Shown: positions 3,001 to 54,363 of the stretch, in pieces
Layout: the number at the start of each line of letters is the position of its first letter
Position numbering within the stretch: the first letter of the stretch is position 1
From: an uncultured Actinomycetota bacterium
GTDB taxonomy: Bacteria > Actinomycetota > Actinomycetes > Propionibacteriales > Nocardioidaceae
DNA: 64,000 nt
Reading direction: 5' to 3'
Assembly: GCA_963811945.1 (NCBI GenBank)
Contig: CAWETD010000001.1
Span: 1,500,428-1,564,427, forward strand
The notes under the pieces: model-generated
The model's input: the letters and a program-made list of their open reading frames with translations, nothing else
Told to the model about the DNA's origin: nothing
Databases searched by the model: none
Made by a program: the position numbers and the translations under genes

Positions 3001-3687
3001 GGGCGGGGTGGGCGCCCCGGCGACGTCCCAGGTGTCGCCGCCGTCCCTGCTGACGTGGATGCCGTCGCCCACGTACAGCCGCTCCTCGCTCTCCGGCTCG
3101 CCGGTGGCGGCGTAGACGATGCTGGCCGCGCCGACCCGTCCGACCGCGAGCGCGCCGATGGCGAGGCTGCGCTGGTCGTGCCAGAGCGACTCCCAGGTCT
3201 CACCGCGGTTGCGCGTCCGGTAGACGCCGCCAGCGGCAGCCCCGGCGTAGAGCGTGTCCGCGTCGACCGGGTCGCCGACCAGGGCCCGCACCCGGCCACC
3301 GACGTTGCGAGGTCCGGTGGGGACCCAGTTGTGCCGGGCCCAGATCGGCTCCGCGCCCGTGGTGGCGACCGGCCGGGCAGCCCGGCTGCCCGCGGCCACC
3401 GGTGGGGTGCCGCGGGGCACGGCGACCACGGGCGGCAGCTGCGTCGGGGGGTCGGCCTGCACGTCGTCGGGACCGGTCTCGTCGACGGGCGTGGGGGGCA
3501 GCGGCGACGGCGGGTCCTCGGGCGCCTCGTCACCCGGCTCCGGCTCGGCCGGCTCCGCCGCCTGCCCGCGCACGGCGGGCACCGACGGCCGGTCCAGGAA
3601 CCACTCGGCCTTGCTGGCCAGGTCGGCGTCGATGCGCCCGCCGATGACCGAACGGGTGGTCACGACCTCGGGGATCGGGTCGGTCAT
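1..3687 (-). CDS. BNR/Asp-box repeat beta-propeller protein (sortilin/GH74-like). The first 1229 codons are in the window and the 3' end runs off the left edge. It is the last visible gene of the tail operon.
   Basis: Absent from the ORF track because there is no stop in the window. My own minus-strand translation from ATG 3687 (ATGA overlap with the upstream stop) gives [13 protein letters not shown]... It contains Asp-box-like motifs YRTRNRGETW, HVSRDGGDTW, FRTVDGGGAW and FRSGDAGTSW, plus GLQDNGCW. The same frame is found at 3687, about 3240, about 2040 and 147. Confidence 0.8.
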   Translation of the reverse strand, partial: MTDPIPEVVTTRSVIGGRIDADLASKAEWFLDRPSVPAVRGQAAEPAEPEPGDEAPEDPPSPLPPTPVDETGPDDVQADPPTQLPPVVAVPRGTPPVAAGSRAARPVATTGAEPIWARHNWVPTGPRNVGGRVRALVGDPVDADTLYAGAAAGGVYRTRNRGETWESLWHDQRSLAIGALAVGRVGAASIVYAATGEPESEERLYVGDGIHVSRDGGDTWDVAGAPTPPGVAPNLGLRFEALAVHPDDGEVCWAVGATGVFRTVDGGGAWSQHLAGQRFTDVVYSPAAGGAGDRLLYLVPDDRNARGSIRIIRLELPPRASVADVNAGLAAAGNRMQVQPPAGADVAAGDRPARAKLAICADHPEVAYLRVTRADGERHLGLFRTLLATRALPEPAGTRWDRVRDHPHWPTAGQASYNLCIAVHPHEPGTVLTGLTELHLSYDADRAAAGAPPTVAAGFIRIMAWDHNQRDRAHHADQHAALFRDDPGNPRGALWVANDGGISRSLDWHPVAPQTPADKEWRPLADLDDVIAGVTRIAITDDDEVPDTAAAWRKRGHGIDATMMYSMSQHPFVPGTLAVGLQDNGCWVTTGGRSWASIGGGDGGFVAFAPDDAYGMLVTSQNDVSRLSFPGMVDDVLTAQAHRPVPLASRALTTGFLRTDPAAFVADTAHHPRDKGRAYHTREGRLYGTDTSGETWVPLDVGDRLEILHVRPIGVRATLEVRPSRAAGVLGLAPQLATDTVVTRRAAFDDEPQERATARVVCAQPGPFALVGGDELVLVLDGTVRRVPIAAHPTIPDLARTTPAQLAAYLRATQAPHLDARLCFERPAGAVRIATRAVGAATRLTLSGNAFTVLTTGGSPVAALGASARTYAGEADLPASVTLVPYTRASTNPSPAGDRTVGVAVGADPAVNARLDATTCADPSEPTAGELATALRAVLDPAAVEVTELSRTRQVKLTFLVAGAGMTLAGTMLPRLGAAAGTGRRRERHLFPPNGETFDLRPPGATALVLRIDDGVGAAIVVRVNTPADVPDLATVTVEELRRVIAARLRARYGAGVRRVRSDVTDLLFRRGQAVDLHPAPSDPDTLWVGSTSGAVFASRDSGATWAAPPPDQLRALTRSGRRVGAVAVHPEDPRIVYLGHRDTGARDRAGGTLWRSADGGVTWLPREAGLRDGAGRFVGVNGLEVDPDAPDVVYAATEAGVFRSGDAGTSWVPFNEGLPNARIVDMAL

Positions 3688-6227
3688 GGCACCAGGTCCA
3701 GCAGGAAGCGCACGGCGTCGGACAGCTCCCGGTTGGTGGGGGCGGCCGCACCGGCGCCCCCAGGGGGCAGCGGGGTGTACGGCATGCTCGTCGGGGCGTT
3801 GGTGTCCGCGGTGAGGTCGGCCGCCATCCGGCTCCACGCCCGGAAGGCGCCGACCCACCCGAGGCTGTCGGCAACCCTGGCCCCTCCCGGGGCGGGGCTC
3901 GCGTACCCCACCGGTGTCGGGATCATCGTGGGGTCGCGGTCGGCTGGCGCACCGCCCTTCTCGCTCGCGGCGCCCCCACCGACCAGCATCTGCCACTCCC
4001 CCAGGCGCCGGGTGTCGAGGTTCCACTGCCGGAACACCTGGTGCACGCGGCGCAGCGCCGGGTCGGGAGGCAGTGGCTGACCCGGCACCGGCGCGACCGC
4101 CAGCGGCGCGTCCGACAGGTGGCTTGCCGCACCCATGCACAGCAGGGCGGCGAGGTCCGAGGCCAGGCCGACGCCCGTGTCGTCGAGCTCGCCGAGCGCC
4201 ACCTCGGGCACCAGGGGGAAGCCCGCCAGCGTGGACGCGGCCGGTCCGCCTACTCCTACCGTCGTCGTCCAGCCCACCCGGGGCGCGTGCCGGAGCAGCG
4301 CTGCCCCCTCGGAGTCGTGCCCGAGCGGGATCACGTCGGCGGCGTGCGCGTCGTGCTCGGCGTTGGTCGGCCGCAGGTCACCAGGGTCGGCGAAGGTCGC
4401 CGGCCACGGCAGCCGGTACGCCGGGTCGGTGGCGCCCGTCGACTCCACGTGCAGCCCGGCGACGCCCGCTCCGGCGAGCAGGGTCACCACCTCGGCGACC
4501 GTCGAGCCGGCGGGGGGCAGCCGCACATCGACCGTGCTGCCGTCCCCGCGGGTGAAGGTCACGGTGTCGCCGTGCCCGGCCACCGCGAGTGCGACGCCGT
4601 CGTCCGACCACAGCCGGACCAGGGGCCGGGCGCCCGACGGGTAGCGGGCGTCGGCGAGGGTCGGCGCGGCCACCGCCGGGTCGTTCCAGAGGGTGGCCTC
4701 GTCGAAGACGCGGGCCAGTGCGGTGAGGCCGCCGACACCCGTACCCAGGCTGTCGGCCGGTGGCAGTGCGTCGGTGAACAGCCGGTCGATGGTGAACGAG
4801 TGCTGCAACCGCAGCGCCAGCACCACGGCCCCGATCAGCGACCCCACGGTGAGCAGGACGATCACGATCCACCAGACGGCGTCCTCGTCGATCAGCTTGA
4901 GCAGAGTGTCCAGCACGAGGTCCAGCAGGGCGGTCGCGAACGGCAGCAGCTGGAGCAGCATCACGAAGCCGTCGCCGCGGCGCCCGTCGCGGTAGGCCAG
5001 CCCCGCCTTGATCCCGGCGAAGGCGTCGGTGCCGAACTGCCCGAGCAGGAGCAGCCAGCGCAACAACGGGTGGTCGTCGTCCTCGGCGCGCAGCAGCGTG
5101 GTGACGGTCAGGCCCATCCGCGCCAGGAACAGGACCAGCGCGGTCACGAACAGCCCGGTGTGCTCGGGCACCTGGGACCACAGGTACATCGACCAGGCGA
5201 ACGGGGCGATCGACGCGACCCCGGCGGTGACCGAGAGCAGCTCCGACACCGAGCGCTCGGTGATGCTCGCACCGGAGGTGGTGAAGGCACCCGACGAGGG
5301 GAGCAGCCGGGCCACCAGCAGTCCGCCGGCGGGCGCGAGCGCCGCGGGGGACAGGACCAGCGCCCAGATCGGCCAGCTCCAGTCGGCCACGGCGGCTCCC
5401 GCAGCGACGGTCTCCTGGGCCGCGCGCAGTCGCTCCTCGGTGAGCTCGCCCTCCTCGCCCAGGCTCGCCTCGAACGCGGCGAACCCGTGCGGCCGGTTCG
5501 CGTCCGGACCGAACACCTGGGTGTACGCGGCCGCGTAGCCGGCGAGCAGGGCGGGTGGCACCTCGGCGGCCGTGGGTGCCCACGACCCCCACCGCGCGTC
5601 GCCACCCGGCCCGAGCAGCAGCCGCAGCAGGTGCGTACGCGCCAACCCGACCTCGACCGACGGGTCGCCCGGGCCGGGCTCGCGCCGGGTGCGGCGGGCC
5701 TGCAGGTCGCGGCGCAGCGGTCCGGTCACCACCTCGCCGGCTGCCGTGCTGAGCATCCCCAGGGTGTAGGCCCGGATCCGCGCCCGCTGGTCCGGGTCGG
5801 CGGTGCGGCTGAGCCCCTGCTGTCCGACGGCGAGGGCGAACTGCATGGCCCGGGTGACCACCGGCGACAGGTCCGGGTCGGGGCCGCCGGTGCGCAGCAG
5901 CGTGCTGCGCCACGCGGGCCCGGAACGGCCTTGCGCGAGCCCGGCCAGGTCGAACCCCGTGGTGCCGAGCACGGCGAAGCGCCCCAACGACGGGCGCAGC
6001 GCCGGCCCGGGCCGCAGGGTGACCGGGACCCCGCCACGGAGCATGTCGCGAGCGGCGGTCGCGAGCGCCAGCACCCGTCGCTCCGTCGCCCGCACCGTGA
6101 CCGTGCCGCCGCCGGCGTCGCTGGAGAACGACCGGGCGCGGACCTTGCGCTCGAGCTGGTCGACGAGGTCGGAGAGGCGCTCGTGGGTGAGCAGCAGGAC
6201 GGGCGGACCGAGCAGTGGTGGCGTCAC
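3684..6227 (-). CDS. Polytopic membrane protein of unknown function (847 aa) inside the tail operon
   Basis: Long ORF with normal actinobacterial composition. ATGA overlaps on both sides. A central block of hydrophobic helices (e.g. [70 protein letters not shown]) is flanked by soluble N- and C-terminal regions of about 300 aa each. Confidence 0.75.
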
Positions 6228-9200
6228 GGCAGCGCCTCCTGCAGCTCGGACAGGGCGTCGCCGGTACGTACCAGGCCGTCGTCGAGCTGCGCCGCGATGC
6301 TGTCGAGGGCGGCCAGCACCGGTTCCAGCACCCGTCCGACATCGACCGCGGCGACGGCGGCGACCACCTCGTCGTACGCGAGCAGGGCGGGGCGGGCCAC
6401 GACGGTCGGGCGGAACTGCTCGGCGACCCGGGCCACGGCGTCGCGCATCGTCACGAGAACCGGCTCGACGCTGGTCAGCGGGTCGAGAGTGCGCACCGTC
6501 TCCACCAGCGCGTCGAGCTGGGCGATGGTGGGCTCCAGCAGGGTCGCCGGCCGCAGCTCCACCACCGTGGACCGGATGTCGGCCCAGACCGGCTCGATCT
6601 CGTCCACCACGAACGAGACGTCCAGCGCGTCGAGAACACCGGCGACGTCGTCCAGGGCGACCTGCAACGGCGCGAGCAGGCCCTCGCGGACGGCACGCAC
6701 GACCTGGTCGCGAAGGCCGGCGACGACGGGGATGAGCGGGGCGAGCACGCGCTCCGGCGGCGACGCGGCCAGCAGGTCCGCCACCGCGTCGCGCAGGTCC
6801 GTGCCGACCTCCACGCCCAGGCCCGCCAACAGGTCACGCAGCCGCTGCGGCACCACCGTGAGCGGTCGAAGCGCGTCGCGCAGCCCACGGGACACGGCGG
6901 CGAGCTCGCTGCGGCCGTCCGCGGTCATCCCGGCGACCAGGTCGGCGACCTGTCGCAGCAGCGTCAGGTAGCGCTCGCGGCCCGCGACCAGGGTGCCCAG
7001 GGTCTCCCGCGGGTCAGCACCCGCCAGCTCCTCGAGCACCCGTCCGCGCAGCACGCTGTCCTCCGGCAGGTCCGCGGCAGCGGCGGTCACCGCGTCGTAC
7101 GCCGTGGTGAGCGCGACCGTCAACGGCACCGGGTCGAGCCCGTCCACGACCTCGACCGCACGACCCAGCGCACCGGCCGCCTCCGCGATCCGGTCATGGA
7201 CGTCGGCCGCCGCGTCCACCGCTCCCCCCACCCAGCCGCGAACGGTGTCGAACGCCTCCGGACGGACCACGAGCGGCGTGGACTGCAGCAGCCCGCTGAC
7301 CAGCACGCCGACCCCGCTCGGGCGGTTGGGCTCCGGGCTGCGCACCGTGGCCACCAGGTCGTCCCACAGGCCGGCGAGCAGCGCGGCGAGCGGGGTGAGG
7401 TCGACCCGCGCGGCCAGCGAGTCGATGACGCCGTCGGCCGCGTCGAGACGTTCCTGCCAGGTGTCGAGGGCGAGTGTCTCGCGCACGGAGCCGACGGTCT
7501 CCGACACCTCGCCGAGCACGGGCTGCAGCAGCACCGACGGCTGCAGTGCGTCGACGACGTCGAGCACGGAGTCGAACGCCGCGTCGACGGGAGCGAGGAG
7601 CTCGCGCAGGTCGACGGTGCCGAGTGCGGCAGCGGCCTCGGCGAGCAGGTCGTGCACCGGCGCCAACGCTTCGGCCGGGTCAAGCGCGCGCACCTGTGCG
7701 AGGAACGGGTCGAAGACCTCCGCCTCGAACGTGACCAGGGCCCCCTCCGGATCGTGCTCCTCGAGGAACGCGACCACCTCCTGCTGGGCCAGCCGTACGC
7801 CCTCGAGCACCGCGACGTCGACTCCGGCACGGATCTCGTCCAGCTGGGCCAGCAGCGGCACCACCACCTCGGCGTCGAAGTCGATCGCCTTGACCGGGGC
7901 GGTCGCCTCGCTCAGGTCGGCTCGCACGTCGTCGGGCAGCAGGTCGACCGGGACCGCGGCGACGACGTCGGCCGTCGTCTCCATCACGTCGACGGCGGTG
8001 TCGAAGTACGGCGAGAGCTCGGCCGACTGCAGCGCCGCCACGACCGGGTCGAGCGCGGCCTGGATCTCGGCGCCCAGCTCGGCGAGGTGCAGGCCGGCCA
8101 CGAACCCGCGGACCCGCTCGAACGCGGCGGCGACGTCACCGGCGGCGTCACCGATGTGTGCCTCCACGTCGGCCATCTGCGCGGTGATCGTCTCGGCGAC
8201 GGTGCGTACCGCCGCCTCCGCAGCGCCCACGACCTCCTCGACGGAGCGGATCGCCGCCTCGACCGGGTCCAGCACCAGCCGGATCGCGTCGACGACCGCC
8301 GTGGCGTCGAGCGCCGACGCCGCCTCCAGCACGGTGTCCAGCGCCGCCCGCACGACGGCCACGACCTCCCTCGCGCGCGTCTCGATCTCCCCCAGCGCGC
8401 CGAGCCCGGCGCGGACCTGTGCCGTCACCGGCTCGAACAGTGCCGCCGGGTCGAGGTCGTCGACAGCGTCCGCCAGCCGGCCCGCGACCGCGGCGACCTC
8501 GTCCCACAGCAGGTCGGGGCTGGGCGCGCGGACCGGCACCTCGAAGGCCAGCACCGGGGCCAGCCAGCCGGACAGCGTGCGCGCGAGGTCGGCGACCGCC
8601 GGCACGTCGTCCTCGACCACCTGCTCGGTGGCTGCCCGCAGCCGCGCGTCGAGCGTGGGTACGTCGACGGCGACCAGCGCCGCCTCCCCGAACCCGAGGC
8701 CCGTACGCAGCAGGTCGACCGTCGCCTCGATGGTGCCCCGGACCTCGCGCGCCATGGTCGCGATCCGGTCGGCCTCGACGGCGTCATGAGGGTCGGCGGC
8801 ACCGATGGCGGCGACCACGACCGAGCCGTTGGCCAGGGCTGCGACCCGGGCCCGCGCGGCGTCGACCCGGTCCTGGTCGAGCAGCCGCTCGACGCCGGAC
8901 CCGAGCACGGACAGCTCGCGCACCGCGCTCTCCGCCGCCATCAGGGCACCGACCAGGCGGACCAGCGCGGCCAGGCCGGGGGCCGGGCCGCGCACCAGGT
9001 CGAGCACGTTCTGCAGCGACAGCCCCGGGACCAGGCCGGTCAGGGCGTCCACGCTCGAGGCCACCTCGGGCTCGGCGAGGACGGCCTGCAGCCGCCCGAA
9101 CGCAGCAGTCAGGGACCCGAGCCCGGTCGCGGGCGGGCCGGCGGCTCCCGTCGTCGCCATCCGGTCGAGCAGGCCGCGCGAGCCGGGGTCGAGCAGCAGC

Positions 9201-9493
9201 CGCACCGGCACCAGCAGGTCTGCCAGCGGACCGAGCAGCTCGCCGGTTGCCGGCAGCCGGGCGAGCGTGCCGGCGGAGTCCTGCGTGGCTCGGGACACCG
9301 CGCCCAGCAGGCCGGTCGTGTCCAGCTCGCCGAGACCGTCGAGACCGGCGGTGACCTCGCCGAGGTCGAGCGCCGTGCCCGGCAGCTCGATGTCTGTGAC
9401 CTCGGTGCCCACGTCGGCGACCACCGAGGCGAGGTCGAACCCGTCCTCTCCCAGCAGGGTGCCGAGCCGCTCGCCCAGCGGCGTCGCTGTCAT
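6224..9493 (-). CDS. Large Ala/Leu/Val/Asp-rich, predicted alpha-helical degenerate-repeat protein (1089 aa), function unknown
   Basis: Start reassigned to ATG 9493 ([11 protein letters not shown]...), which forms an ATGA overlap with the stop of the upstream gene. The 86-aa Arg-rich N-terminal extension in the ORF track looks spurious. Recurrent L-x-P-V/L...LD...V motifs occur ([46 protein letters not shown]). Confidence 0.75.
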
Positions 9494-10818
9494 CCGGCAC
9501 GCACCTCCAGCCACAGCCGGAGGATGCCGCCCGGCCTGGCGGGCGGCTCGTCGACGTCGGGGAGCAGGAAGGCGGCGCTGCCGGACACCGGGCGGCCGTC
9601 GGTTCCGACCAGCAGGTCGGCGCACACCTCCACCCAGATGACGCCACCGGTCTCCGCCACCAGGCTGCCCAGCAGCTTGCGGTCGTCGGTTCGGATCGTC
9701 CAGTTCAGCGTCGGACCGGGTTCGGGCACGACCTGCCCGTGCAGCGCGCACACCGGGGCCAGCGTCCCCTCGGGGGCGCAGCTGACCCGGACCAGCCCGG
9801 TGAGCACCGGTCGGGCCCGGTCCAGGGCCAGCTCGCCGTCGAAGTCGATCGCCAGCCGGCTGAGCTGGGCCAGCGCGTCGGCGAGGACCAGCGGCTCCCT
9901 CGGCTCCCAGCTCAGCCGTCGCGCCCGGATCAGGTCCAGCCGCCCGCCCTCACCGGGAGGTCCCTGCACCCCCTGCGGTCCCCGCTCCCCGCGCGGCCCG
10001 GCCTCGCCCGGCGGGCCCGGCTCGCCCTGCGTCCCCGATGCACCCGGTGCACCCGGTGCACCTTGCGTGCCCGGCTCACCGTTGGCGCCGGCGGCGCCCG
10101 TCTCTCCCCGCGGACCCGGCTCGCCCTGCGGCCCCGATGGCCCCGGCTCGCCGGGGTCGCCCGGCTCGCCGGCGGGTCCTGGCGGACCGGTCTCGCCGAC
10201 AGTCCCCGGCTCACCCGGAGGCCCGGCCGGACCGGCCGGACCCGCGGGTCCCTCCGGCCCCGGATCGGTCGCGCTCGCGACCAGCGGGCCGTCGTAGCGC
10301 CAGGTGCCGGCCGCGTCCTGGAAGTGCTCGCCGGTGTGACCGTGCTCGGCCGGCGTCAGGTAGTGCACCCCGTCGTAGCCGGGGCTCACGCCGCCGTCGT
10401 CCCGGGTCAGGACGGCGACGGTGAGGGTGTCGGCGTCGTCGGGTGGGTCCCCGGGCAGCACCTCCACCGCCGTGTCGAGGTAGACGATCGTCGGCTGGTC
10501 CCCCATCCGGGCGGCGGGGTCGTCGTGGTTGGTCGCGCGCAGCACGACGCTGAACGGCCCGGCACCGTCCGGCACGGTGAGCGCTGCGCCCTCCTCGACC
10601 CGCAGCGGGCGGCCGCCCGAGGTCACCGCGAGGCCGGGCGACAACGAGACCGTGGCGTCGGCCCCCACCTCGATCCGCAGCCCGTACGCGACCGCACCAG
10701 TGCCGGCCGTCCGCCGCAGGTCGTCCGCGGCCTGCTCGGCCGTGGCCTGCGGGTGCTCCAGGTGTGCGGCCGTGACCAGGAGACCGTCCAGGAACCGGGT
10801 GCGCTGCGGGTCGCTCAT
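9490..10818 (-). CDS. Collagen triple-helix-repeat protein, tail-fibre-like (442 aa)
   Basis: 35 uninterrupted G-X-Y triplets (residues 187-291, [19 protein letters not shown]...GPPGEG) sit between globular N- and C-terminal domains. It lies distal to the baseplate genes and has ATGA overlaps at both ends. Confidence 0.85.
9946..10260 (-). repeat. In-frame collagen-like (GXY)x35 coding repeat
   Basis: Direct count of Gly at every third residue over 105 residues of the 442-aa ORF. Confidence 0.9.
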
Positions 10819-12428
10819 GCGCCGGCCTCCTCATAGACGAGCCGCACGGTCTGCACGCCGTACGTAGCGGGCGCCGCGACCCGAAGGGTCAGCGTCAGCG
10901 ACGCCCCGGCTACGGGCGTGACCGGGGTCGCCGGGCTGAGGGTGACCGGGGTTCCGGGGACGACGTCGGCGGCGGCGTCCGCACCGAGCAGCAGCCGCGC
11001 CGGAGGCACCGGCGCCTGCTCGGGAGGCGTCCCCACGAGCCGTACCGAACCCAGCGGCGGTGGCGCTGCGCGCGCGTGCGACAGCGCCACCACGACACCG
11101 GTGGGGTCGAGCCGGAAGACGGACGCGTCGTCGGCAGCGGAGGCACCGGGTGCCGCCACCGCGAGGTCGACGGTGCCGCGGGCGACCTGCAGCGACAGCC
11201 ACAGCACGTCGTCGTCGGTCGGGGTCGGTACCGGCTTCGCCAGCGCGAGGGTCACCCACTCCGGCGGGCCGGGCGGCGCCAGCCGCTGGGGCGCGGGCAG
11301 GATCAGCGGCGCGAGCACCCCGCCGTCGAGGGGAGCGCCCGGGGCCAGGGACGGGTCGCCGGTGAGCAGGACACCGGCCAGCTCGGCACCGTCCGCGCCG
11401 GCCAGCACGGGGACCCGGACACCGCAGAGCACGCCGAGACGGCGCAGTGGCGCGGCGGCGAGCCGGACCAGGAGCGGGTTGCCGGGTGCCAGGGTGAGGG
11501 CGTACGTGTCCGACCGCGGCGGTCCCACCTCCGGCAGCACCCGCTCGTCCGGCGGGTCGGCGTCGATGCCCGCGATCACGTGGTGCACCCGCCAGCTGCC
11601 GGCGGCCGCGGGCAGGGTCAGCGTGACGTCGTGGTCGCCCTCCTCGTCGGCCACCACCGACGGCGGGACGACACCGAGGTCGACGTCGTGGGTGAGCAGC
11701 AGCGGCGCCTCCACCCGCACCGAGATGACCGCCGGCTGGTCCACCTGGAGGCCGACCGGCACCACCCGGTCGGCGGCACCGATGGCGGCGCGCAGGAACG
11801 TGGTGATGTCGACGTCCGCGCCGGCCTCTGCCGAGCCCTTGGCGAGGATCAGCGCCGGGTCGGCGCGCCAGACGGTCGCACCGTCGACGGTCAGACTCAT
11901 CCCGGTCGGCACGGCAGGCAGCGACGCGAACCCCTCGTTCTGCACCGTGGCCGGACTGGCCGCCCGGTCCAGGTTGACCAGCAGCTTGGTGGTCATCACC
12001 TCGCCCGCGAACGCCGCCTGCCCGCCGCTGATGCTGACTCCGGTCAGGGCGGCGAAGGCCGCGCCGGTCCACGTCAGCACGGACGAGACGCCGACCGGCA
12101 GGTCGAGCCCGGACAGGGTGGCGAAGCCGCCGAAGTCCAGGACCAGGCTGTTGGCGGACGCGGCCGGGTCGTCCCCGGTCGAGCGGACCTGGGCGATGCC
12201 GGACAGCGGGGTGCGGCCCGGCGCCCGGGCCGACACCGTCGCCGTCGCCGCGTCGACCAGCGCCTGCGCGGGCAGCGTCACCGACACCTCGGCCGTGCGC
12301 CCGCTGGGCTCCGCCGGCGACGTGTCGGCGGTCCGGGCGCTGCGGTACAGCCCCCTGTCCACCTCGAACGTGGCACCGGAGATCTCGACCGTGAAGAAGT
12401 CGGCGTCGGCAACCCTGGTCGCGACCAT
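10815..12428 (-). CDS. Hypothetical protein (537 aa), probably beta-rich, in the distal tail module
   Basis: Long ORF with typical composition. ATGA overlap downstream and a 3-nt gap upstream. I recognised no motif. Confidence 0.7.
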
Positions 12429-12431
12429 GAC

Positions 12432-13019
12432 TCAGGCGTTGAACGTCTGGGCGGCCTGCAGCGCGAGGAAAGCGTTGCGCACCCCCGCGCCGGTCGCGGT
12501 CTCGTCGATGTCGATGTGCTGTTCGGTGAACGCGGCCTGGATCACCGACTGGTCCGCCTGGCTGAGAGTCTCCGGGCTGATGTTGCGTGCCAGCACCGCC
12601 CGCACGTCGTCGCGGTCCCGGACGAAGTCGCGGAACACCGTCTCCAGGGGTATCTCGCGCAGCGCCACGTGTGCGTCGGGGACGATCCGCGTCGGCAGGT
12701 CCAGCGGCGATGCCAGCACCACCTCGATCGTCGTGCCCTGGGGGATGCGGGTCCCCGCCGGCACGCTCTGCGCCACCACCCGCGGCTGCAGCAGCGGGAT
12801 GATCGGCACGACCTGGTCGATGACCGAGAAGTCGATAGGCACCACCGGCACCGCGACGCCGTCGCGGGCGATGTTGGCCTGCTTCTCGGCCTCGCCCAGG
12901 TTGACGAAGATCGTGGTCGGGCCGGTTGCCCGCGGCATGTTGAACGCGGTGACGGCGTCCTCGGACAGCGAGATCCGCCTCGGGACCGCCTCCCGGCCGA
13001 TCTCCTCACGACCTGCCAT
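12432..13019 (-). CDS. Hypothetical protein (195 aa) with a PASTA-like segment
   Basis: The ORF is tightly packed in the operon. The segment VVPIIPLLQPRVVAQSVPAGTRIPQGTTIEVVLA resembles the C-terminal half of a PASTA domain. Confidence 0.6.
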   Translation of the reverse strand: MAGREEIGREAVPRRISLSEDAVTAFNMPRATGPTTIFVNLGEAEKQANIARDGVAVPVVPIDFSVIDQVVPIIPLLQPRVVAQSVPAGTRIPQGTTIEVVLASPLDLPTRIVPDAHVALREIPLETVFRDFVRDRDDVRAVLARNISPETLSQADQSVIQAAFTEQHIDIDETATGAGVRNAFLALQAAQTFNA

Positions 13020-13034
13020 GACGTCCTCCTGCTC

Positions 13035-13769
13035 TCACGCGCTGCCGCGCTGTCGGGTGGTCGTCCGTCCGACCACGAGCTCCAGGCGGTTGAGCACGCT
13101 CACGACCTCGTCGTACGTGAGCCCGACCAGGCTGGGCATCGTGACCGTCGCCTCGGACTGGAGCGCTGCCGCCAGCACCAGGCGCACCTCGTCGACGGCC
13201 GGGTCGGCGGCGGAGCCGGCCGCCGGCGTCTGCACGAGCACGGGAGAGTTCTGGTTCGCGCTGGGCATGTTGGTCCGGGCGATCTCCTGCCCGGTGATGT
13301 CGAGGATCTGGTCGACCTGCAGCCCCGCGGCGGTGAGCCGGTTGACGGCCTCCTCGGCACCCACACCGAACAGGTCAGGCACCAGCACCCGGTTGCGCGT
13401 CATCTGCACGAGGACCGGGCCGCTGACCGGCACCGTGACGTCTCGCGCCTCGTTGCCGAACCCGGCCGCCTCCACGTGCACCCGCCAGGGCCCCGGCGTG
13501 ACGCCGGCGACGACGAAGTCGGCCGACCCGGCGAACGGCGCGATGCCCTCGACCGGCCGCCCGACGTCGCTCAGCGGCATGGCGACCACCCGGGCACCGG
13601 GAATGGCACTGCCGTCGGCGCCGCTGACCGACACCGCGACGACCGCGCCGCCGAGCTCGGCGACGACGTCGTACAGGTTGTCGAGCCCGGCGAGGATGGC
13701 GTTCCACGCCTGCGCGGTCAGCGGGCGACCCGGCTGCGCCTGGGTGAGCGCTGGCTTCTCGAGCGGCAT
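13035..13769 (-). CDS. CarboxypepD_reg-like Ig domain plus PASTA-domain protein (244 aa), a candidate receptor-binding protein
   Basis: VAVSVSGADGSAIPGARVV...VTPGPWRVHVEAAGF resembles a carboxypeptidase-regulatory fold. VPDLFGVGAEEAVNRLTAAGLQV...VLVQTPAAGS...VRLVLA and MPSLVGLTYDEVVSVLNRLELVVG match the PASTA pattern. It lies immediately downstream of the baseplate genes. Confidence 0.65.
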   Translation of the reverse strand: MPLEKPALTQAQPGRPLTAQAWNAILAGLDNLYDVVAELGGAVVAVSVSGADGSAIPGARVVAMPLSDVGRPVEGIAPFAGSADFVVAGVTPGPWRVHVEAAGFGNEARDVTVPVSGPVLVQMTRNRVLVPDLFGVGAEEAVNRLTAAGLQVDQILDITGQEIARTNMPSANQNSPVLVQTPAAGSAADPAVDEVRLVLAAALQSEATVTMPSLVGLTYDEVVSVLNRLELVVGRTTTRQRGSA

Positions 13770-13784
13770 CGCTACTCCTCGTGC

Positions 13785-15386
13785 CTACGGGATGGGGGTG
13801 GGGTCGGGCTGGGCGACGGCCGGCCACAGTCGGGTACCGAGCACCAGGCCGCCGACGGGCTCGGTCGAGCCGGGCTCGCGCACGACGCCCTCGCCGAGCG
13901 TCCACCGGTCGTCGGCGTGCTCGACGTAGACGTGCACTCCGCCCGCGCGGTGCCGGTCGAGCAGCCGTCGGAGCCGGTCGCGGAGCACCGGTTGGGCCGG
14001 CGCGGCACCCTCGGCAGCGTCGAGCCCCAGCAGCCGCTGCGGCAGCCAGAGGCGCACGGCGTACGGCTCGCGCTCCTGCCAGTCGAAGCCGACCTCGGCA
14101 GCGGCGGGCAGCGGCGCGCCCGCCTCGTCGGCGAACACCGAGGCCCGGCCCGCCGGGTCCGCGCCGTCTCCTCCGGCGAACGCCGACCTGTCGGCAGGGA
14201 TGGCGAAGCCGCTCGGTGCGGACCCGAACGCCGCCTCGCCCACGAACAGCACCCAGGTCGACTCACCGACCCGCATCGGCAGCGCCTCCACCAGCCCACC
14301 GGCGTGCGGGAACACCGCGCCGGGGTCGAAGGCGTCGGTCAGCGGACGGGTCACGACGAAGGTCGCCACCCGGTCGGCCGGCGCCGGTTGGTCGTCGTCG
14401 GTGCTGCCGAACACGAAGTCGCCGCGGCGCGGGTCCTCGCTGGCGAACACGCCGCCGGAGAAGGAGTAGCCGCGGCGGGTGACGTTGGCGCCGGCCAGCG
14501 TGATCCGGCCGTCGCTCTCGAAGCGCAGCTCCTGCCCGTCCGGGACCGTGCCGGTGTAGGCAACGCCCTTGCCCGCCCCCGTGTTGACCACCTGCGGCGC
14601 CACGGTGCGGTCCTCGATCCCGCGCACGCGGACCGACACCTGCACCTCGTCGAACCCGCCGCGCAGCTGGCGGAAGACCTCGCCCGGACGACGTGGCACC
14701 GGGTCGACCACCTGCAGCCGGAACGGGTTCTCCTCCAGCGCCAGCAGGTCCTCGTCGGGCTCGACCGTCGCGGAGCCGGCGTCGCCGTCCCGGGTCAGGC
14801 GGAGCAGGTCCAGGCACCGCGCCACGTGCCAGGAGCGGTCGTCGAGATGCGTGATCTCCACGACCTCCAGGGCGAGGAAGGCGGCCGCCGCGCGGAGCAG
14901 CGCCGACACCGTGCCGTTGCCGTCGCGGTGCACCCGGACCAACCGGGTCATGCAGCCGCGCACGGTGGCCAGCACCGCGGCGTACGCCACCAGCCGGTGC
15001 AGTGCCCCGGCCAGCTGAGCGGGATCGTCGAACGCCGACGCCTGGACGCCGAACAGCTCCGGCAGCGTCGCGAGGGCGGCGTCGACGGCCTCGGCCGGCG
15101 CTGCCGGGTCGTCGAGCAGCACGGCGAGGTCGGCGGCGCGGGCCAGCCTGCCCCGAACCAGCTCGAAGGTCTCCGGCCCGAGCCCGTGCAGACCGGCGAG
15201 CAGCAGCAGGTCGGCCTCCTCGTCCAGGCTGTCCAGCCGGTGCGACGCCCGGATCCGGCCCACCTGGGAGGTCTGCACGTCCAGGGCCGTCACCAGCCCG
15301 CCGACCGTCTCGTCCAGGACGGTGCCCGGCCGGTCCGCCCGCAGGTGCGCGGGGAAGCGGGAGAGCACCGTCGCGGTCCTGGTCAT
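13785..15386 (-). CDS. Baseplate wedge protein, gpI/Afp12-like (533 aa)
   Basis: Start reassigned to ATG 15386 (MTRTATVLSRF...), an ATGA overlap with the Baseplate_J gene. Its position directly after the J-like gene matches P2/Mu/eCIS order. No diagnostic motif beyond position and size. Confidence 0.6.
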   Translation of the reverse strand: MTRTATVLSRFPAHLRADRPGTVLDETVGGLVTALDVQTSQVGRIRASHRLDSLDEEADLLLLAGLHGLGPETFELVRGRLARAADLAVLLDDPAAPAEAVDAALATLPELFGVQASAFDDPAQLAGALHRLVAYAAVLATVRGCMTRLVRVHRDGNGTVSALLRAAAAFLALEVVEITHLDDRSWHVARCLDLLRLTRDGDAGSATVEPDEDLLALEENPFRLQVVDPVPRRPGEVFRQLRGGFDEVQVSVRVRGIEDRTVAPQVVNTGAGKGVAYTGTVPDGQELRFESDGRITLAGANVTRRGYSFSGGVFASEDPRRGDFVFGSTDDDQPAPADRVATFVVTRPLTDAFDPGAVFPHAGGLVEALPMRVGESTWVLFVGEAAFGSAPSGFAIPADRSAFAGGDGADPAGRASVFADEAGAPLPAAAEVGFDWQEREPYAVRLWLPQRLLGLDAAEGAAPAQPVLRDRLRRLLDRHRAGGVHVYVEHADDRWTLGEGVVREPGSTEPVGGLVLGTRLWPAVAQPDPTPIP

Positions 15387-17185
15387 GACGGGATGCTCGC
15401 CGTCGTGCTGGTCGGGACGGTGACGGAGCGGATCCAGACCAGCTGATCGGCTGCCACCGCCACCTCGGCGTCGGCGGTGGTGACCGTCAGCCCCTCCTGG
15501 ACGAACTCCACGCGGTAACCGAGGCTGTCCGGCACGATCCGGTAGGTCTCGGTCTCCGGCAGGGCACCGCGGATGGTCGACATGCTGATCACGTCGCTGG
15601 TCAGGAACGCGTCGTGCAGCCGCTGCCCGATGTCGCGTCGCGCCTCGGCCCGGGCCACGTCGACCGGGACGAGCGTGGACAGCCCGAGCATCTCGACGTC
15701 GACCTCCACGTCGACGGCGACCAGTGACCCGCGGACGGTGACCGACAGGTGGCGGCCCCGGTCGTCGTCCAGCAGCCGCACCCGCCGGTCGGCCGGCGGG
15801 TAGACGTTGGACGTCGCGGCGAGGGTCACGGCGGGAAAGATCTGCACCAGCGTGTCGGCCACTCCCTCGACGCCCATCACGGCGCGTACCAGCGCGGCCT
15901 GGACCACCGGCATCCCGACGCCGAGCTCCTCGACCTGGGCGCGCACCGCGTCCGCGACGGTGGTCGCCAGCCCGGCCTGCTGCTCGGCCGGCAGGTTCGC
16001 CGCCGCCGGCAGCACGGTCACCTGCACGGCCACGTCGAACCATCGGCCCTCGGGCGCCGCCCCCAGGCCGCCCGGTTCCGGGGCCGGGGTGCCGCCGGGC
16101 GGCGGGATGGGCGGGAGTCCCGCGTCGGGCGGGACCGGCAGGTCGTGCACGAGCCGGATCCCCGCCGGGCGGGTGGCCTCCAGCCCTGCGAGCGCACGCA
16201 GCGCCTCGGCCTCCTGCAGGTCGGCGGCCACCGAAACGGTCAGGACGCCCGGGCGGGAGACGTGGTCCTCGGCCACCTGGACGTCCCGCTCGCGAATGCC
16301 CTCGACGGCGGTGAGCGCCCCGATCATCGCCGAGACGGTCGCGGCACCCGACGTCTCCAGGGCCCGGCGGACCCGCCGGCGCAGCGCCTCGTCGGTCTCG
16401 TCCTCGCCGCCGATCCGCAGCGGCTGGGCGTTCACGGCGGTGTCGACGCCGAGGATCGGCCGGCGGATCACGGTGAGCGCTCCCGCCGGCGCGATGCCTG
16501 CCGGCCCGTCCACCACGGCGCGGACCGGTACGGCCACCGACAACGTGCCGACACGCAGCCGGGCCTCCTCGGTCGTCTCCGCGGTCACCGCCGGTGCCTG
16601 GGAGCTGCTGACCTGGGTGCCGGCGGGCACGGTCACGTCGGCGGGCGCGGGCGTCGCGCGCGAGAACACGACCTCGCCGGAGGCGAACAGCCGGGTCCGC
16701 CGCTCGACGCCCAGCAGCGCCGCGACCTGGTCGAGGTCGCTGCCCTCGGCGGTGTCGAGGAACGCCGAGCGGTAGACCAGCTCCAGCTGCCGGGACAGCA
16801 CGGCGTACTCCCGGGCCAGGCTCTCGGCGAGGGTGCGCACGACGCTGCCGACGTTGCGGTCGGTCAGCCGCGGCGGCGCACCGGCGCCCGGCCGGGTCTC
16901 GTAGCTGGCGTAGAACCGGCTGCCCGGCTCCGGCTGCGCAGCGCCGAGCCAGCCGAGCTGTCCGTCCGCGTCGACGGTGTAGTCGACACCGAGCTGGAAC
17001 CGGGTGAACGCGCCGGCGGCGACGCCGTGCACCCGCACGGTGGGCACCAGGACGTCCGCCCCGGCATCCAGCCGGAACGGCTCCTGCTCCGGGAGGAACA
17101 CGAACTGCTCGCGCACCGACCCCCCGGTCAGCCCGGAGACCAGGTCGTCGACGAACACGCCGTACGGCTCGGCGGCGAAGCTCAT
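15383..17185 (-). CDS. Baseplate J-like protein (gp6/gpJ/Afp11 family, 600 aa)
   Basis: Start at ATG 17185 (MSFAAEPYGVF...), an ATGA overlap with the gp25 gene. Baseplate_J-like block: LDQVAALLGVERRTRLFASGEVVF...VPAGTQV...GGEDETDEALRRRVRRAL. Confidence 0.8.
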   Translation of the reverse strand: MSFAAEPYGVFVDDLVSGLTGGSVREQFVFLPEQEPFRLDAGADVLVPTVRVHGVAAGAFTRFQLGVDYTVDADGQLGWLGAAQPEPGSRFYASYETRPGAGAPPRLTDRNVGSVVRTLAESLAREYAVLSRQLELVYRSAFLDTAEGSDLDQVAALLGVERRTRLFASGEVVFSRATPAPADVTVPAGTQVSSSQAPAVTAETTEEARLRVGTLSVAVPVRAVVDGPAGIAPAGALTVIRRPILGVDTAVNAQPLRIGGEDETDEALRRRVRRALETSGAATVSAMIGALTAVEGIRERDVQVAEDHVSRPGVLTVSVAADLQEAEALRALAGLEATRPAGIRLVHDLPVPPDAGLPPIPPPGGTPAPEPGGLGAAPEGRWFDVAVQVTVLPAAANLPAEQQAGLATTVADAVRAQVEELGVGMPVVQAALVRAVMGVEGVADTLVQIFPAVTLAATSNVYPPADRRVRLLDDDRGRHLSVTVRGSLVAVDVEVDVEMLGLSTLVPVDVARAEARRDIGQRLHDAFLTSDVISMSTIRGALPETETYRIVPDSLGYRVEFVQEGLTVTTADAEVAVAADQLVWIRSVTVPTSTTASIPS

Positions 17186-17670
17186 GTCACCTCCCCCAGC
17201 GCGAACGGGACGACCAGGTTGAGCGGCTCCTCGTGCTCGAGCAGCAGGAGGTCGACCTCGATGCGCACCACGTCGCGTGGCGGGTCGTGGGCGGCACGGA
17301 CGTCGGCGCGGACGACGCGCTCGATGCGCGGTTCCTGCCGGAGTGCCTCGAGGACGAACAGCTTGATCAGGTTCCGGGTGCGCTCGACGTTGGGCTCGCC
17401 GATCAGGTCGTGGTGGCGGGAGCCGTAGTCCGGGTGGCCAAGCGCCGCGAGCTCGCCCCTGCGGGTCATCAGCCGGTTGACGAGCATCTGCACCGCCGCA
17501 TCGACACCGCGCACGGTCGCCAGGTCGCGGGCCGGAGGAACGCCACCGGTCCGGCCGGTCCTCAGGTCGGCGTCCTCCCAGGCGCCGGAGGGTCCCGCAT
17601 AGTCGAGCGCGAGGTCGTCGCCCAGCCGCTGCTCGAGCAGCTTCAAGGCCGCGTCGGACCGCGGGCTCAC
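17182..17670 (-). CDS. GPW/gp25-family baseplate wedge protein (162 aa)
   Basis: GTG 17670 forms a GTGA overlap with the PAAR gene stop. Sequence LLEQRLGDDLALD...VNRLMTRRGELAALGHPDYGSRHHDLIGEPN...LIKLFVLEALRQEPRIERV is typical of gp25. Confidence 0.85.
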   Translation of the reverse strand: MSPRSDAALKLLEQRLGDDLALDYAGPSGAWEDADLRTGRTGGVPPARDLATVRGVDAAVQMLVNRLMTRRGELAALGHPDYGSRHHDLIGEPNVERTRNLIKLFVLEALRQEPRIERVVRADVRAAHDPPRDVVRIEVDLLLLEHEEPLNLVVPFALGEVT

Positions 17671-18002
17671 GGCGCGGTCCCGTCGCTGATGAACGGCGCG
17701 GACGGCGGCCCGAGCACGGTGAGGATGCCCGGCCCCGACGGAATCTGGTCGCCCACGCGCACCAGCGGCTGGCCGGCCACGGTGACCCCCGTCGACGCGC
17801 CCGGTGTCCCGATCGGCAGCGGGTACGGAACGCCGGACACCGAGTTGACCATCTGGCACAACGAGCCGGCGGTCGCCAACGGCATGCCACCGGCGACCGC
17901 CACCGACTGCAGCACCGCCACGACGACACCACTGTCCGGCGGGCCGGCGGCTCCGGGTGAGAGGAGCACGGAGCAGCCGATGCTGACCGGTGGCCCGGAC
18001 AC
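17667..18002 (-). CDS. PAAR-like (or DUF4280-like) spike-tip protein (111 aa)
   Basis: GTG 18002 is preceded by GGGAGGGGAC. It is a small Gly/Pro/Val-rich beta protein (VSIGCSVLL...VAGGMPLATAGSLCQMVN...VTVAGQPLVRVGDQIP) placed directly after the spike gene. Confidence 0.65.
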   Translation of the reverse strand: MSGPPVSIGCSVLLSPGAAGPPDSGVVVAVLQSVAVAGGMPLATAGSLCQMVNSVSGVPYPLPIGTPGASTGVTVAGQPLVRVGDQIPSGPGILTVLGPPSAPFISDGTAP

Positions 18003-18012
18003 GTCCCCTCCC

Positions 18013-18687
18013 TCAGCTCGCCGAGAAGCTCGTGACGCCGGCGATCGACGTGGTCGCGCCCTTGAGCGTGGCCGCCGCCTGACCCTGGACCGTGGCATTG
18101 ACGCCCTTGACGGTGGCGTCCGAGCCGGCCTCGACCGTGACCGCCTTGCCGGCCTTGAGCCCGAGGTCGCCGCCCGCCTCGATCAGCACGTCACCGGCCG
18201 CCTTGAGCCGGATGTCGCCGTCCCCCTCGACCAGCACGGTCGTACCGCCCATCGTGACGGTGACCGCCTCGTCGTCGATGGTCACCGTGCTGCCGTTGGG
18301 CAGCTCGACGTGCAGCCGGCGCGCGCCGCTCTCCTCGTCGTCGGGCACCTCGTAGACCATCTCGGTGGGCGACGCCTTCGGTGGGTGCGTCTGCTCGTCG
18401 TAGAGGAACCCGAGCACCACGCCACCGTTGAGGTCCTGCCCGACGAACGCGACCACGGCGAGGTCGCCCTCGCGGGGCGCGGTGGAGAGGCCGAGCCGAC
18501 CCACGGCGACCGGGACGTGCTGCAGCTCGAGGCTGCTCCCCCTGAGCCGGAGGTCGACCGCGAGGTTGGTGCTGCCGTCGCCCGCCTCGTCGGTGTACGC
18601 CCGGGTGACCACCCCGAGCTCGACACCACGGCTGGCGGAGAGCTCGTCGCGGACGATGGCCTGCAGGACAGGGACCAGGCTGGTCAT
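18013..18687 (-). CDS. gpV/gp5/VgrG-like central spike protein (224 aa)
   Basis: N-terminal OB-like region (GVVTRAYTD...GDLAVVAFVGQDLNGGVVLGFLY) plus a C-terminal beta-helix-like repeat (TVLVEGDGDIRLKAAGDVLIEAGGDLGLKAGKAVTVEAGSDATVKG). Confidence 0.8.
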   Translation of the reverse strand: MTSLVPVLQAIVRDELSASRGVELGVVTRAYTDEAGDGSTNLAVDLRLRGSSLELQHVPVAVGRLGLSTAPREGDLAVVAFVGQDLNGGVVLGFLYDEQTHPPKASPTEMVYEVPDDEESGARRLHVELPNGSTVTIDDEAVTVTMGGTTVLVEGDGDIRLKAAGDVLIEAGGDLGLKAGKAVTVEAGSDATVKGVNATVQGQAAATLKGATTSIAGVTSFSAS

Positions 18688-19652
18688 GCCGTCGCCTCCA
18701 CCCGCAGCCGAGTGACGAACGGCAGGTGCCCGTCCAGGAGGTGCTCGACCTCGGTGACCCGCAGGTTCGACGACCCCGCCCCGGGCAGGTCGCTCAGCTC
18801 GACGACGTCACCGGCCCGCAGGGCGGGCGAGCCGACGGCGACCACGTGACCGGTCGCGGTCCGGCGCTGCCGCGCAGCCGCCAGTGCGTCGCCGAGCGCG
18901 ACGGCCGAGTCCCGGTCGCGCAGCGCCGGGGGCACCAGCGTGGCCACGTCGGGACTCCCGCCGTCGGGCTCGCGCAGCAGCAGGTGCCAGCCCTCGGCGC
19001 CCTTCTCGCTGGCCGCGCCGAAGGGCACCACGTCCAGGTCGGCCTCCGCAGGATCGGCTGACCCGACCGACCAGGCCACCAGCTCCGCGCCGTGCCGGAG
19101 CGTGGCGGCGACGGCTGGCGTCGACCGCGGCGGCCGGACGTTGACCCTGCCGTCCCCGTCGCTGGTCAGCTCACAGCCGGCCAGGCGGGCCAGGTCGCCG
19201 ATGTGCCGCCAGACCGGGCGTCGTTCGTCGACGTGGTAGGCCGCGACGTCGGTGTCGGCGTCGATCTCACCCGGGTCCACGCCGGCCGCCGACAGCAGGT
19301 CGGTGACGACGTCGCCGACCGACGAGCCGACGTACGAGCGCCCGACACGCACCGCCGACGCACGCGCACTCGAACCGACCGCGACGACGGTCATCTCCCC
19401 CACCTCCGACCGCACGCTCGCGACCGTGCCGGTGAAGACGGTCTCGAGGTCGTCGTCGTAGCCGACCTCGACCACGGCGTCCGCACCGGCGGTGACACCG
19501 GCGAACGGCGTGCCCGCGTCCAGCCGGATCACTGCCAGGTCGTGCGCCGCGCCGCTGCTGAGCTCGATGCGCAGCGAGGACAGCGCGGCCTCCGGACCGG
19601 AGAGCGCACGCCCCCCCAGGTCCAGCCGGGCCCGCGGGCGGGGCGGGCTCAC
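18684..19652 (-). CDS. Phage late-control gpD-like baseplate hub protein (322 aa)
   Basis: gpD-like pattern: VEVGYDDDLETVFTGTV...RSYVGSSVGDVVTDLLSAAGV...WRHIGDLARLAGCELTSDGDGRVNV. ATGA overlaps on both sides. Confidence 0.75.
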   Translation of the reverse strand: MSPPRPRARLDLGGRALSGPEAALSSLRIELSSGAAHDLAVIRLDAGTPFAGVTAGADAVVEVGYDDDLETVFTGTVASVRSEVGEMTVVAVGSSARASAVRVGRSYVGSSVGDVVTDLLSAAGVDPGEIDADTDVAAYHVDERRPVWRHIGDLARLAGCELTSDGDGRVNVRPPRSTPAVAATLRHGAELVAWSVGSADPAEADLDVVPFGAASEKGAEGWHLLLREPDGGSPDVATLVPPALRDRDSAVALGDALAAARQRRTATGHVVAVGSPALRAGDVVELSDLPGAGSSNLRVTEVEHLLDGHLPFVTRLRVEATA

Positions 19653-43250: not shown

Positions 43251-43347
43251 AGCGTACGAGCGGCCCGATGGAACACCCGCCGTTTCGCACGAGGACTGGG
43301 CCGAACGGCCCGCGATCGAACCTGTCCGTCGGATGTCGCCTGTCCGG

Positions 43348-50089: not shown

Positions 50090-50258
50090 CTTCGCAACGT
50101 AGGAGACGACGCGCGCCCGACCACCACTCCGGAGGCCAACCCGGGCCGAACGGCGGCAGATGTCAACCGTGCGAGGACCGGGTCGTATGCCCCATCGGGC
50201 ACCGTCACCGGGCGTCCTCGCCACTGTGGGCCCGCCTCGGCCGACGTACGCTCGGCTG

Positions 50259-54265: not shown

Positions 54266-54363
54266 CGTCGACCACCCCCTCTCGGCGGCAAGTCTGTCCC
54301 GGGTGGGCGCCCCGGGTCCCCGTCTTCACCGGACCGGCACGCACGATCACGCGCAGCGACGAG

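Follow-up and report, generated by a model that had tools for sequence, protein, structure and literature searches.

Complementary PASTA half-units on two neighbouring proteins of a contractile tail cluster, candidate subunits of the baseplate periphery

What are PASTA modules doing next to the baseplate genes of a contractile tail? The question is raised by two adjacent genes, here called A and B, in a stretch of 64,000 nucleotides from an uncultured actinobacterium of the family Nocardioidaceae (contig CAWETD010000001.1 of GenBank assembly GCA_963811945.1), which we refer to as the window. The original prediction had seen in the two gene products PASTA-like, peptidoglycan-binding modules in the receptor-binding position of the tail, directed against exposed Gram-positive cell walls. 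Our analysis bears out the domains and the neighbourhood, but suggests another task. We judge it somewhat better than an even bet that A and B serve as conserved structural parts at the rim of the baseplate in a contractile phage-tail-like particle, and that a joint in which one PASTA fold is split between the two proteins holds them together. The assignment to the baseplate periphery stands higher in our judgment than the split-fold step.

That the two proteins contain PASTA-like modules is a point on which Pfam, a profile search of the PDB, AlphaFold models and Foldseek agree. Gene A has an ATG start with a Shine-Dalgarno sequence (GAGGAG), and its product matches the Pfam family PASTA (PF03793) with 41.9 bits (E 1e-10) in two stretches, above the gathering cut-off of 23.2 bits. 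The second stretch, residues 209-236, covers only positions 1-28 of the profile and represents a truncated unit. A profile built from 74 homologues of A has its best PDB matches in the PASTA domains of Mycobacterium tuberculosis PknB (2kui, 6.7e-7) and of Staphylococcus aureus Stk1 (3m9g, 3.6e-6), whereas single-sequence PDB searches of A and of B gave chance-level matches only. In the AlphaFold model of A (mean predicted local distance difference test score, pLDDT, of 85), a helix (residues 19-39) is followed by a beta-sandwich (42-122), a PASTA unit (about 127-200) and a less confident tail with one helix. This unit 1 is modelled with a pLDDT of 90-97 and has the alpha/beta PASTA fold of about 65-70 residues; Foldseek aligns it with the PknB and Stk1 structures 2kuf, 3m9g and 5e12 (3-6e-3, probability 0.99-1.0), in agreement with the original prediction. 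It also contains an insertion of about 20 residues with the invariant residues D157 and G160. The truncated unit at the C-terminus (207-244) has a lower pLDDT and no strands in the monomer model.

The sandwich had been predicted to be an Ig region of the CarboxypepD_reg type. Its score against PF13620 is 26.8 bits in the window protein, under the gathering cut-off of 32.3 bits, while orthologues pass with 35.3, 37.6 and 35.6 bits; the top Foldseek matches are the transthyretin-like domains of carboxypeptidases D and N (1e-4). By fold and orthologue scores, the sandwich is CarboxypepD_reg-like. Proteins with this fold in the BFVD database include phage tail-collar, Baseplate-J-like and wedge proteins. 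The N-terminal motif upstream of the sandwich, in which G14, P16, T18, W22 and N23 are invariant in the 74 sequences, is a candidate for the element that docks A onto the baseplate. The idea that A and the N-terminus of the downstream fibre protein share such a docking motif was dropped: hhalign places the two in register, but with P = 0.11. Neither a signal peptide nor a membrane anchor is evident in the sequence of A.

Protein B carries the other half-unit. As a whole it scores 20.7 bits (E 3.9e-4) against PF03793, slightly below the cut-off, and the match of its residues 80-103 is confined to profile positions 40-63; the excised segment reaches 24.6 bits, above the cut-off, and four homologues of B have a precomputed PF03793 match. 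The hairpin formed by this segment has invariant Q84, S85, G89 and G95 and the consensus PxVVSQSxPxGTxVxxGTxVxLVL. In the model of B its strands are residues 80-84 and 100-103, with a pLDDT of 70-79, and the first 50 residues of the protein are disordered. The confidently modelled C-terminal four-helix domain has no relative in Foldseek searches of the PDB (none at E <1), in PHROG, in NCBIfam or among PDB sequences, and neither the profile nor the model of the whole protein found a match in the PDB. All elements of the predicted domain inventory are thereby recovered: in A a sandwich, a complete PASTA unit and a truncated one, and in B half a unit.

The pair is a constant element of the cluster. 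The gene order is kept in two long contigs and, beyond these, in 58 loci of species-representative genomes from at least six phyla: sheath, tube, a gene of about 160-180 codons, the tape-measure position, hub, spike and a small gene are followed by the gp25-like gene, Baseplate_J, a gene of about 530-690 codons, A, B, a gene of about 550 codons and the fibre. Of the non-redundant loci, 54 reach far enough past A, and in each of these B is a separate open reading frame (ORF) in the same order, 10-150 nt after A. A first search for A gave 75 homologue clusters, all of 234-250 aa, and the length of A is 232-256 aa in all homologues. Median identity is 36% over 96% of the length, comparable to the 39% of the second-wedge (533-aa) protein and the 37% of the hub. 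An exhaustive profile search for A was flooded by giant multi-repeat PASTA and sandwich proteins, and its match counts are not a measure of family size.

The hosts belong to the Actinomycetota, Alpha- and Betaproteobacteria, Myxococcota, Desulfobacterota, Acidobacteriota and Gemmatimonadota. The monoderm hosts are Actinomycetota, including the isolates Kribbella and Streptomyces sp. SID13031, and the closest named relatives of the A protein of the window are also found in this phylum. Among diderms, A and B occur in the isolates Sorangium cellulosum So0157-2, Rhodospira trueperi, Neoroseomonas lacus and Rubrivivax sp. A210, and in many metagenome-assembled genomes (MAGs) from Burkholderiales, Desulfobacterota, Acidobacteriota and Gemmatimonadota. 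Eight of nine diderm A orthologues scanned have PASTA above the Pfam cut-off (34-46 bits), the exception being the Gemmatimonadaceae-type locus L057; in 6 of these 8 the truncated last unit is the best stretch. CarboxypepD_reg passes its cut-off in 3 of the 9.

The two half-units match like the parts of one domain. A ends in a half-unit in 53 of 53 loci, 25-48 residues past the start of the last PSLxGL motif, and the halves are complementary, A supplying profile positions 1-29 and B positions 40-63. In silico fusion of the A tail to the hairpin of B yields a chimera with a single match over positions 1-63 of 64, at 41-60 bits in each of six distant loci, compared with 20-26 bits for either half alone. 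With the segment that precedes the hairpin in B itself, the gain is about 0 bits for the window and for Rubrivivax, and some score is gained for Rhodospira; in B of the Gemmatimonadota type, no more than some 35 residues precede the hairpin, and an N-half is lacking. The one natural A-B fusion is P0143 (400 aa; contig L064, 271-1473), in which a proline-rich linker separates the PASTA halves. A second apparent fusion, P0133, was discarded as a frameshift artefact. Longer A-like representatives (264-309 aa) end in a half-unit or in low-complexity tails, and none has a complete second unit. From the complementary halves, the upstream segment of B, the models and the fusion, we therefore propose that the halves fold together: chances are about even that they form one PASTA domain which fastens B to A. 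The two half-units look like a joint between subunits, not like extra ligand sites.

Relatives of A show which of its parts are constant. In some of them the distal part is replaced by IPT/TIG or low-complexity segments, which marks the N-terminus with the sandwich as the constant anchor and the PASTA part as one among several outer modules that can be exchanged. In a separate subgroup of variants (P0162, P0169, P0170, P0171 and P0177), the half-unit gives way to a tail rich in K, D and E, with a conserved RVFIPxxxRPxVG motif at its end.

Together, these observations suggest a model for the arrangement of A and B on the particle. The N-terminal motif of A would dock on the wedge, and the sandwich and PASTA unit 1 would project outwards. 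One PASTA domain would arise from the terminal half-unit of A together with the one in B and tie B to A; the helical domain of B would then touch the 537-aa protein encoded next to it or the fibre. In such an arrangement the PASTA fold would serve chiefly as a compact building block and joint, and the choice of the target would fall mainly to the variable collagen-like fibre encoded downstream.

Several points weigh against this model. Gene order is the sole basis for the location of A and B in the particle and for the docking role of the motif in A. The score of the chimera is additive by construction, and shows the complementarity of the halves, not their assembly. The P0143 fusion is known from a single contig of 1.6 kb, and a scan of metagenomes brought no close relative to light. 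Alignment with hhalign pairs residues 61-107 of B with beta2, the insertion and the hairpin of unit 1 in A (E 0.002, probability 14%), and the N-segment of B raises the score in Rhodospira; B of the window type may hence be a degenerate, complete PASTA unit. One variant A, P0122 (286 aa), has two tandem N-halves. Finally, a binder of an invariant ligand such as peptidoglycan should be highly conserved too.

The alignment, the score gain in Rhodospira and the tandem halves of P0122 are what favours a closely related view, in which A and B are baseplate or fibre parts with no split fold and B holds a degenerate but complete PASTA-like unit of its own. The half-unit that ends A would then be left without a partner, as a beta-alpha-beta element docking at some other site; it might add a strand to the 533-aa or 537-aa protein, for instance, or dock within an oligomer of A. 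The invariant residues G42, I50, R52 and G54 of B, which are spaced like the glycine-helix-glycine of a PASTA N-half, fit this view as well. We give it a substantial chance, though one well short of even, as the N-segment of B brings no gain in the window or in Rubrivivax, B of the Gemmatimonadota type lacks this segment and nevertheless keeps the hairpin, and AlphaFold leaves the segment disordered (from an alignment of 21 sequences only). It is very improbable that A or B, or both, are assembly factors such as fibre chaperones or scaffolds that are missing from the finished particle. Small genes adjoining fibre genes would suit such a role, as would the lack of a recognisable structural-protein fold in B. 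Fibre chaperones of the phages P2 and Mu are, however, encoded downstream of the fibre, while A and B lie upstream of it; the sandwich of A is common in virion tail proteins, and relatives of A are extended by IPT/TIG domains or by long strings of PASTA units, in the manner of fibres. A trivial explanation can practically be dismissed, namely that a single gene appears as A and B because of a nonsense mutation or a sequencing error, or is read through an in-frame TGA. In the window, the TGA stop of A (13035-13037) is indeed in frame with B, with five codons between. B has its own ribosome-binding site (AGGAGGA) and ATG, the uniform length of A and the separate reading frame of B hold throughout the loci described above, an independent Logan contig has exactly this pair, and B is in frame with A in 20 loci and out of frame in 34. 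As the frame varies and B is always a separate ORF, the in-frame TGA of the window appears to be a coincidence.

The idea closest to the original prediction is that A and B make up a short side fibre, and that its PASTA units attach to peptidoglycan, muropeptides or lipid II of the target, be it for generic adhesion to an exposed Gram-positive wall or as a wall-sensing trigger of contraction. That the PASTA units are genuine speaks for it, as does the binding of muropeptides or lipid II by some PASTA domains of kinases of the PknB/PrkC type. The host of the window also looks actinobacterial by its G+C content (73-76%; the window is 70-77% G+C) and by the relatives of A. An Amidase_2 gene heads the cluster, and the conservation of A fits the binder of an invariant ligand. 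A further argument comes from P0230 (717 aa; contig L065, 10001-13516), which joins an A-type N-terminus and sandwich to at least seven complete PASTA repeats. Its gene comes directly after those for spike, PAAR, gp25, Baseplate_J and a 351-aa protein, and the gene that follows encodes a 449-aa protein with a PG_binding_1 domain (36.6 bits, cut-off 23). The same holds for P0190, which has about nine PASTA repeats and is encoded near a Phage_tail_fib gene of a tail-collar fibre. On the other side, the layout of one and a half PASTA units in A and half a unit in B is unchanged in the diderm isolates and in many diderm MAGs, and if the targets are kin of the host, a diderm wall would be hidden under the outer membrane, beyond the reach of a baseplate. 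Two of the three PASTA pieces are halves, a diagnostic binding motif is absent, and the variable fibre downstream is the more typical receptor binder. Not all PASTA domains bind wall fragments, and we know of no sequence signature that predicts binding. As an explanation of the pair as a whole we consider the side fibre rather doubtful; cell-wall binding by A and B as such is possible, as far as sequences can tell. Improbable, in our estimate, is a combination of both ideas, in which a two-chain PASTA joint of a new baseplate arm and the PASTA array act as a conserved wall sensor that aids in triggering or positioning the firing. The sensed ligand would be peptidoglycan or lipid II, and the arm would belong to a widespread group of undescribed head-less contractile tails.

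Of the original prediction, targeting of Gram-positive peptidoglycan as the recognition logic of the family is thus not supported: the layout is shared with diderms, A is uniform and as conserved as wedge and hub proteins, the variable gene is the fibre downstream, and the half-units resemble a joint. The PASTA-repeat genes of contig L066 deserve mention in their own right. Two long PASTA-repeat proteins (724 aa, and P0190 with 920 aa) are encoded at 459-7544, both ending in helix-hairpin-helix domains; the pair adjoins a gene with a Phage_tail_fib N-terminal domain, and no sheath or tube genes are visible nearby.

The surroundings of A and B in the window are listed in Table 1. The gene for the 533-aa protein overlaps the stop codon of Baseplate_J via ATGA and ends 16 nt before the start of A, which places A directly after the baseplate genes, as predicted. 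As for the receptor-binding position, the pair does follow the wedge genes, but the term is better given to the collagen-like fibre two genes downstream. The N-terminus of this fibre family is kept in all 45 loci with an extractable gene, at lengths of 345-981 aa, and the family aligns over only 64% of its length. Residues 5-86 match the family CIS13_fam (NCBIfam NF053767) weakly, with 23 bits against a cut-off of 370. Because of the constant N-terminus, the variable length and the matches to tail-fibre PHROGs and CIS13, the collagen-repeat protein is the likely receptor-binding fibre.

Table 1. Features of the contractile tail cluster in the window, in order of position; residue numbers refer to the encoded proteins
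Feature	Position	Strand	Basis
ORF of >1459 aa, BNR/Sortilin-like	1-4377	minus	runs to window edge
ORF of 847 aa	3684-6227	minus	ORF list
ORF of 1175 aa	6224-9751	minus	ORF list
Collagen-repeat protein, 442 aa, candidate fibre	9490-10818	minus	Collagen PF01391; tail-fibre PHROGs
Conserved 537-aa gene, directly after B	10815-12428	minus	synteny in 52 loci
Gene B, 195 aa	12432-13019	minus	ORF list, Pfam, homologues, model
B residues 110-195, four-helix domain	12435-12692	minus	model, pLDDT 93-97
B residues 78-104, C-terminal half of PASTA unit, beta-hairpin RVVAQSVPAGTRIPQGTTIEVVLA	12708-12788	minus	Pfam
Shine-Dalgarno AGGAGGA, 4 nt before ATG of B	13024-13030	minus	sequence
Gene A, 244 aa	13035-13769	minus	ORF list, Pfam, homologues, AlphaFold model
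A residues 207-244, N-terminal half (beta1-alpha-beta2) of second PASTA unit	13038-13151	minus	Pfam
A residues 127-200, complete PASTA unit 1	13170-13391	minus	Pfam, PDB profile search, Foldseek
A residues 42-122, transthyretin-like (CarboxypepD_reg) beta-sandwich	13404-13646	minus	PF13620, Foldseek
A residues 12-39, invariant PGxPxTAQxWN motif, then helix (19-39)	13653-13736	minus	74 sequences, model
533-aa gene, position of P2 gpI / Cis12 (second wedge protein)	13785-15386	minus	synteny in 58 loci
Baseplate_J wedge protein, 600 aa	15383-17185	minus	PF04865, 58 bits
gp25-like gene	~17182-17670	minus	orthologue annotations, ORF map
PAAR-like gene	~17667-18000	minus	phrog_281 weak match, E 0.0066
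gpV-like spike	18013-18687	minus	Pfam, PHROG, NCBIfam, orthologue annotations
gpD-like hub	18684-19652	minus	Pfam, PHROG, NCBIfam, orthologue annotations
183-aa and 388-aa genes	between hub and tube	minus	
Tube	21260-21760	minus	Pfam, PHROG, NCBIfam, orthologue annotations
Sheath	21764-23173	minus	Pfam, PHROG, NCBIfam, orthologue annotations
Amidase_2 (N-acetylmuramoyl-L-alanine amidase), upstream cluster end	24745-25620	minus	Pfam

Much of the cluster falls outside curated families. The 533-aa and 537-aa proteins have no match in Pfam, PHROG, NCBIfam or PDB sequences, and PHROG and NCBIfam returned nothing useful for A and B either. The orthologue of the PAAR-like gene in L065 has a weak match to PF05488. 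Two genes without assignment lie between the sheath gene and the Amidase_2 gene, whose product may be a release lysin and whose neighbour is an ABC transporter gene on the opposite strand. Head or packaging genes were found neither within 38 kb on one side nor within 12 kb on the other, and the cluster is bordered by ordinary chromosomal genes in the window. A tblastn search of 50,697 phage genomes gave no match for A, 2.9 million IMG/VR contigs contain no relative of it, and the sheath has two weak phage matches only. This type of cluster is not represented among catalogued phages; it is a head-less lineage similar to tailocins or injection systems, barely covered by curated resources.

Three very large genes (1-9751, minus strand) extend the operon to the edge of the window; none of them has a family assignment, and they could encode further fibres or cargo. 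The one for the 1175-aa protein is kept in 12 mostly actinobacterial loci. Elsewhere in the window, two GGDEF-EAL paralogues (41100-43535 and 47942-50605, both on the minus strand) lie less than 7 kb apart, and close to them are genes for an RCC1-repeat protein (53087-54325) and a CMAS-type methyltransferase (56462-57787).

How does the A-B pair compare with known systems? With the PASTA domains of PknB/PrkC/Stk1 kinases and PBP2x-type transpeptidases, A shares sequence family and fold, but it has neither a kinase nor a transpeptidase domain, belongs to a tail cluster, has a conserved insertion in unit 1, and its second unit is halved, the rest being found on B. Like the Cis13/Afp13/Pvc13 fibres of extracellular contractile injection systems (eCIS), A is encoded downstream of Baseplate_J and second-wedge genes, and has a conserved N-terminus followed by modules that would face outwards. 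It is, however, short, uniform and conserved instead of variable, and neither A nor B matches CIS13_fam (NF053767). The phage T4 proteins gp9, gp10 and gp11 are peripheral baseplate proteins that hold fibres, and A and B may be likened to them as small, conserved multi-domain proteins of the rim that would link wedge and fibres; no match in sequence or fold was found, and the analogy is one of gene order and domain logic. A precedent for a domain type of wall proteins that is conserved in contractile tails regardless of the host envelope is provided by the LysM-type wall-binding modules in the baseplate hub proteins of P2-like phages and eCIS, whose function is not settled. The PASTA units of A and B have a different fold and would sit at the rim, not in the central hub.

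R-type tailocins and diffocin-like particles have the same kind of cluster, with sheath, tube, hub, spike, wedge and fibre genes, no head genes (here as far as the window extends), the same chromosomal embedding and a wall amidase at one end. Most proteins of our cluster lack a curated family, and described tailocins are not known to have the module of A, B and the 537-aa protein. The R-type class is further defined by release through lysis and by killing of kin, and the cluster is at most a candidate member of it. The core set of Afp-type systems consists of sheath, tube, spike and wedge with an AAA+ ATPase (Cis15) and a cap (Cis16). Sheath, tube, hub, spike, the gp25-like protein and Baseplate_J are present, whereas no ATPase domain was seen in the cluster ORFs scanned, and the operon leaves the window at coordinate 1. 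For these two reasons the cluster is not assigned to the Afp-type eCIS here.

In the library searched by full text, no paper connects PASTA domains with baseplates, tailocins, contractile injection systems or receptor-binding proteins of phages, and PASTA is not mentioned in a large survey of eCIS. The present analysis defines a two-gene module, A and B, that is conserved across at least six phyla. If PASTA units of this module do bind the wall, they would give the particle a hold on bacterial walls that is independent of receptors, or a means to sense them. If the split-fold joint is true, it would be a simple natural case of a small domain that is spread over two chains and fastens subunits to each other, and it could be reused in the re-engineering of tailocins or injection systems.

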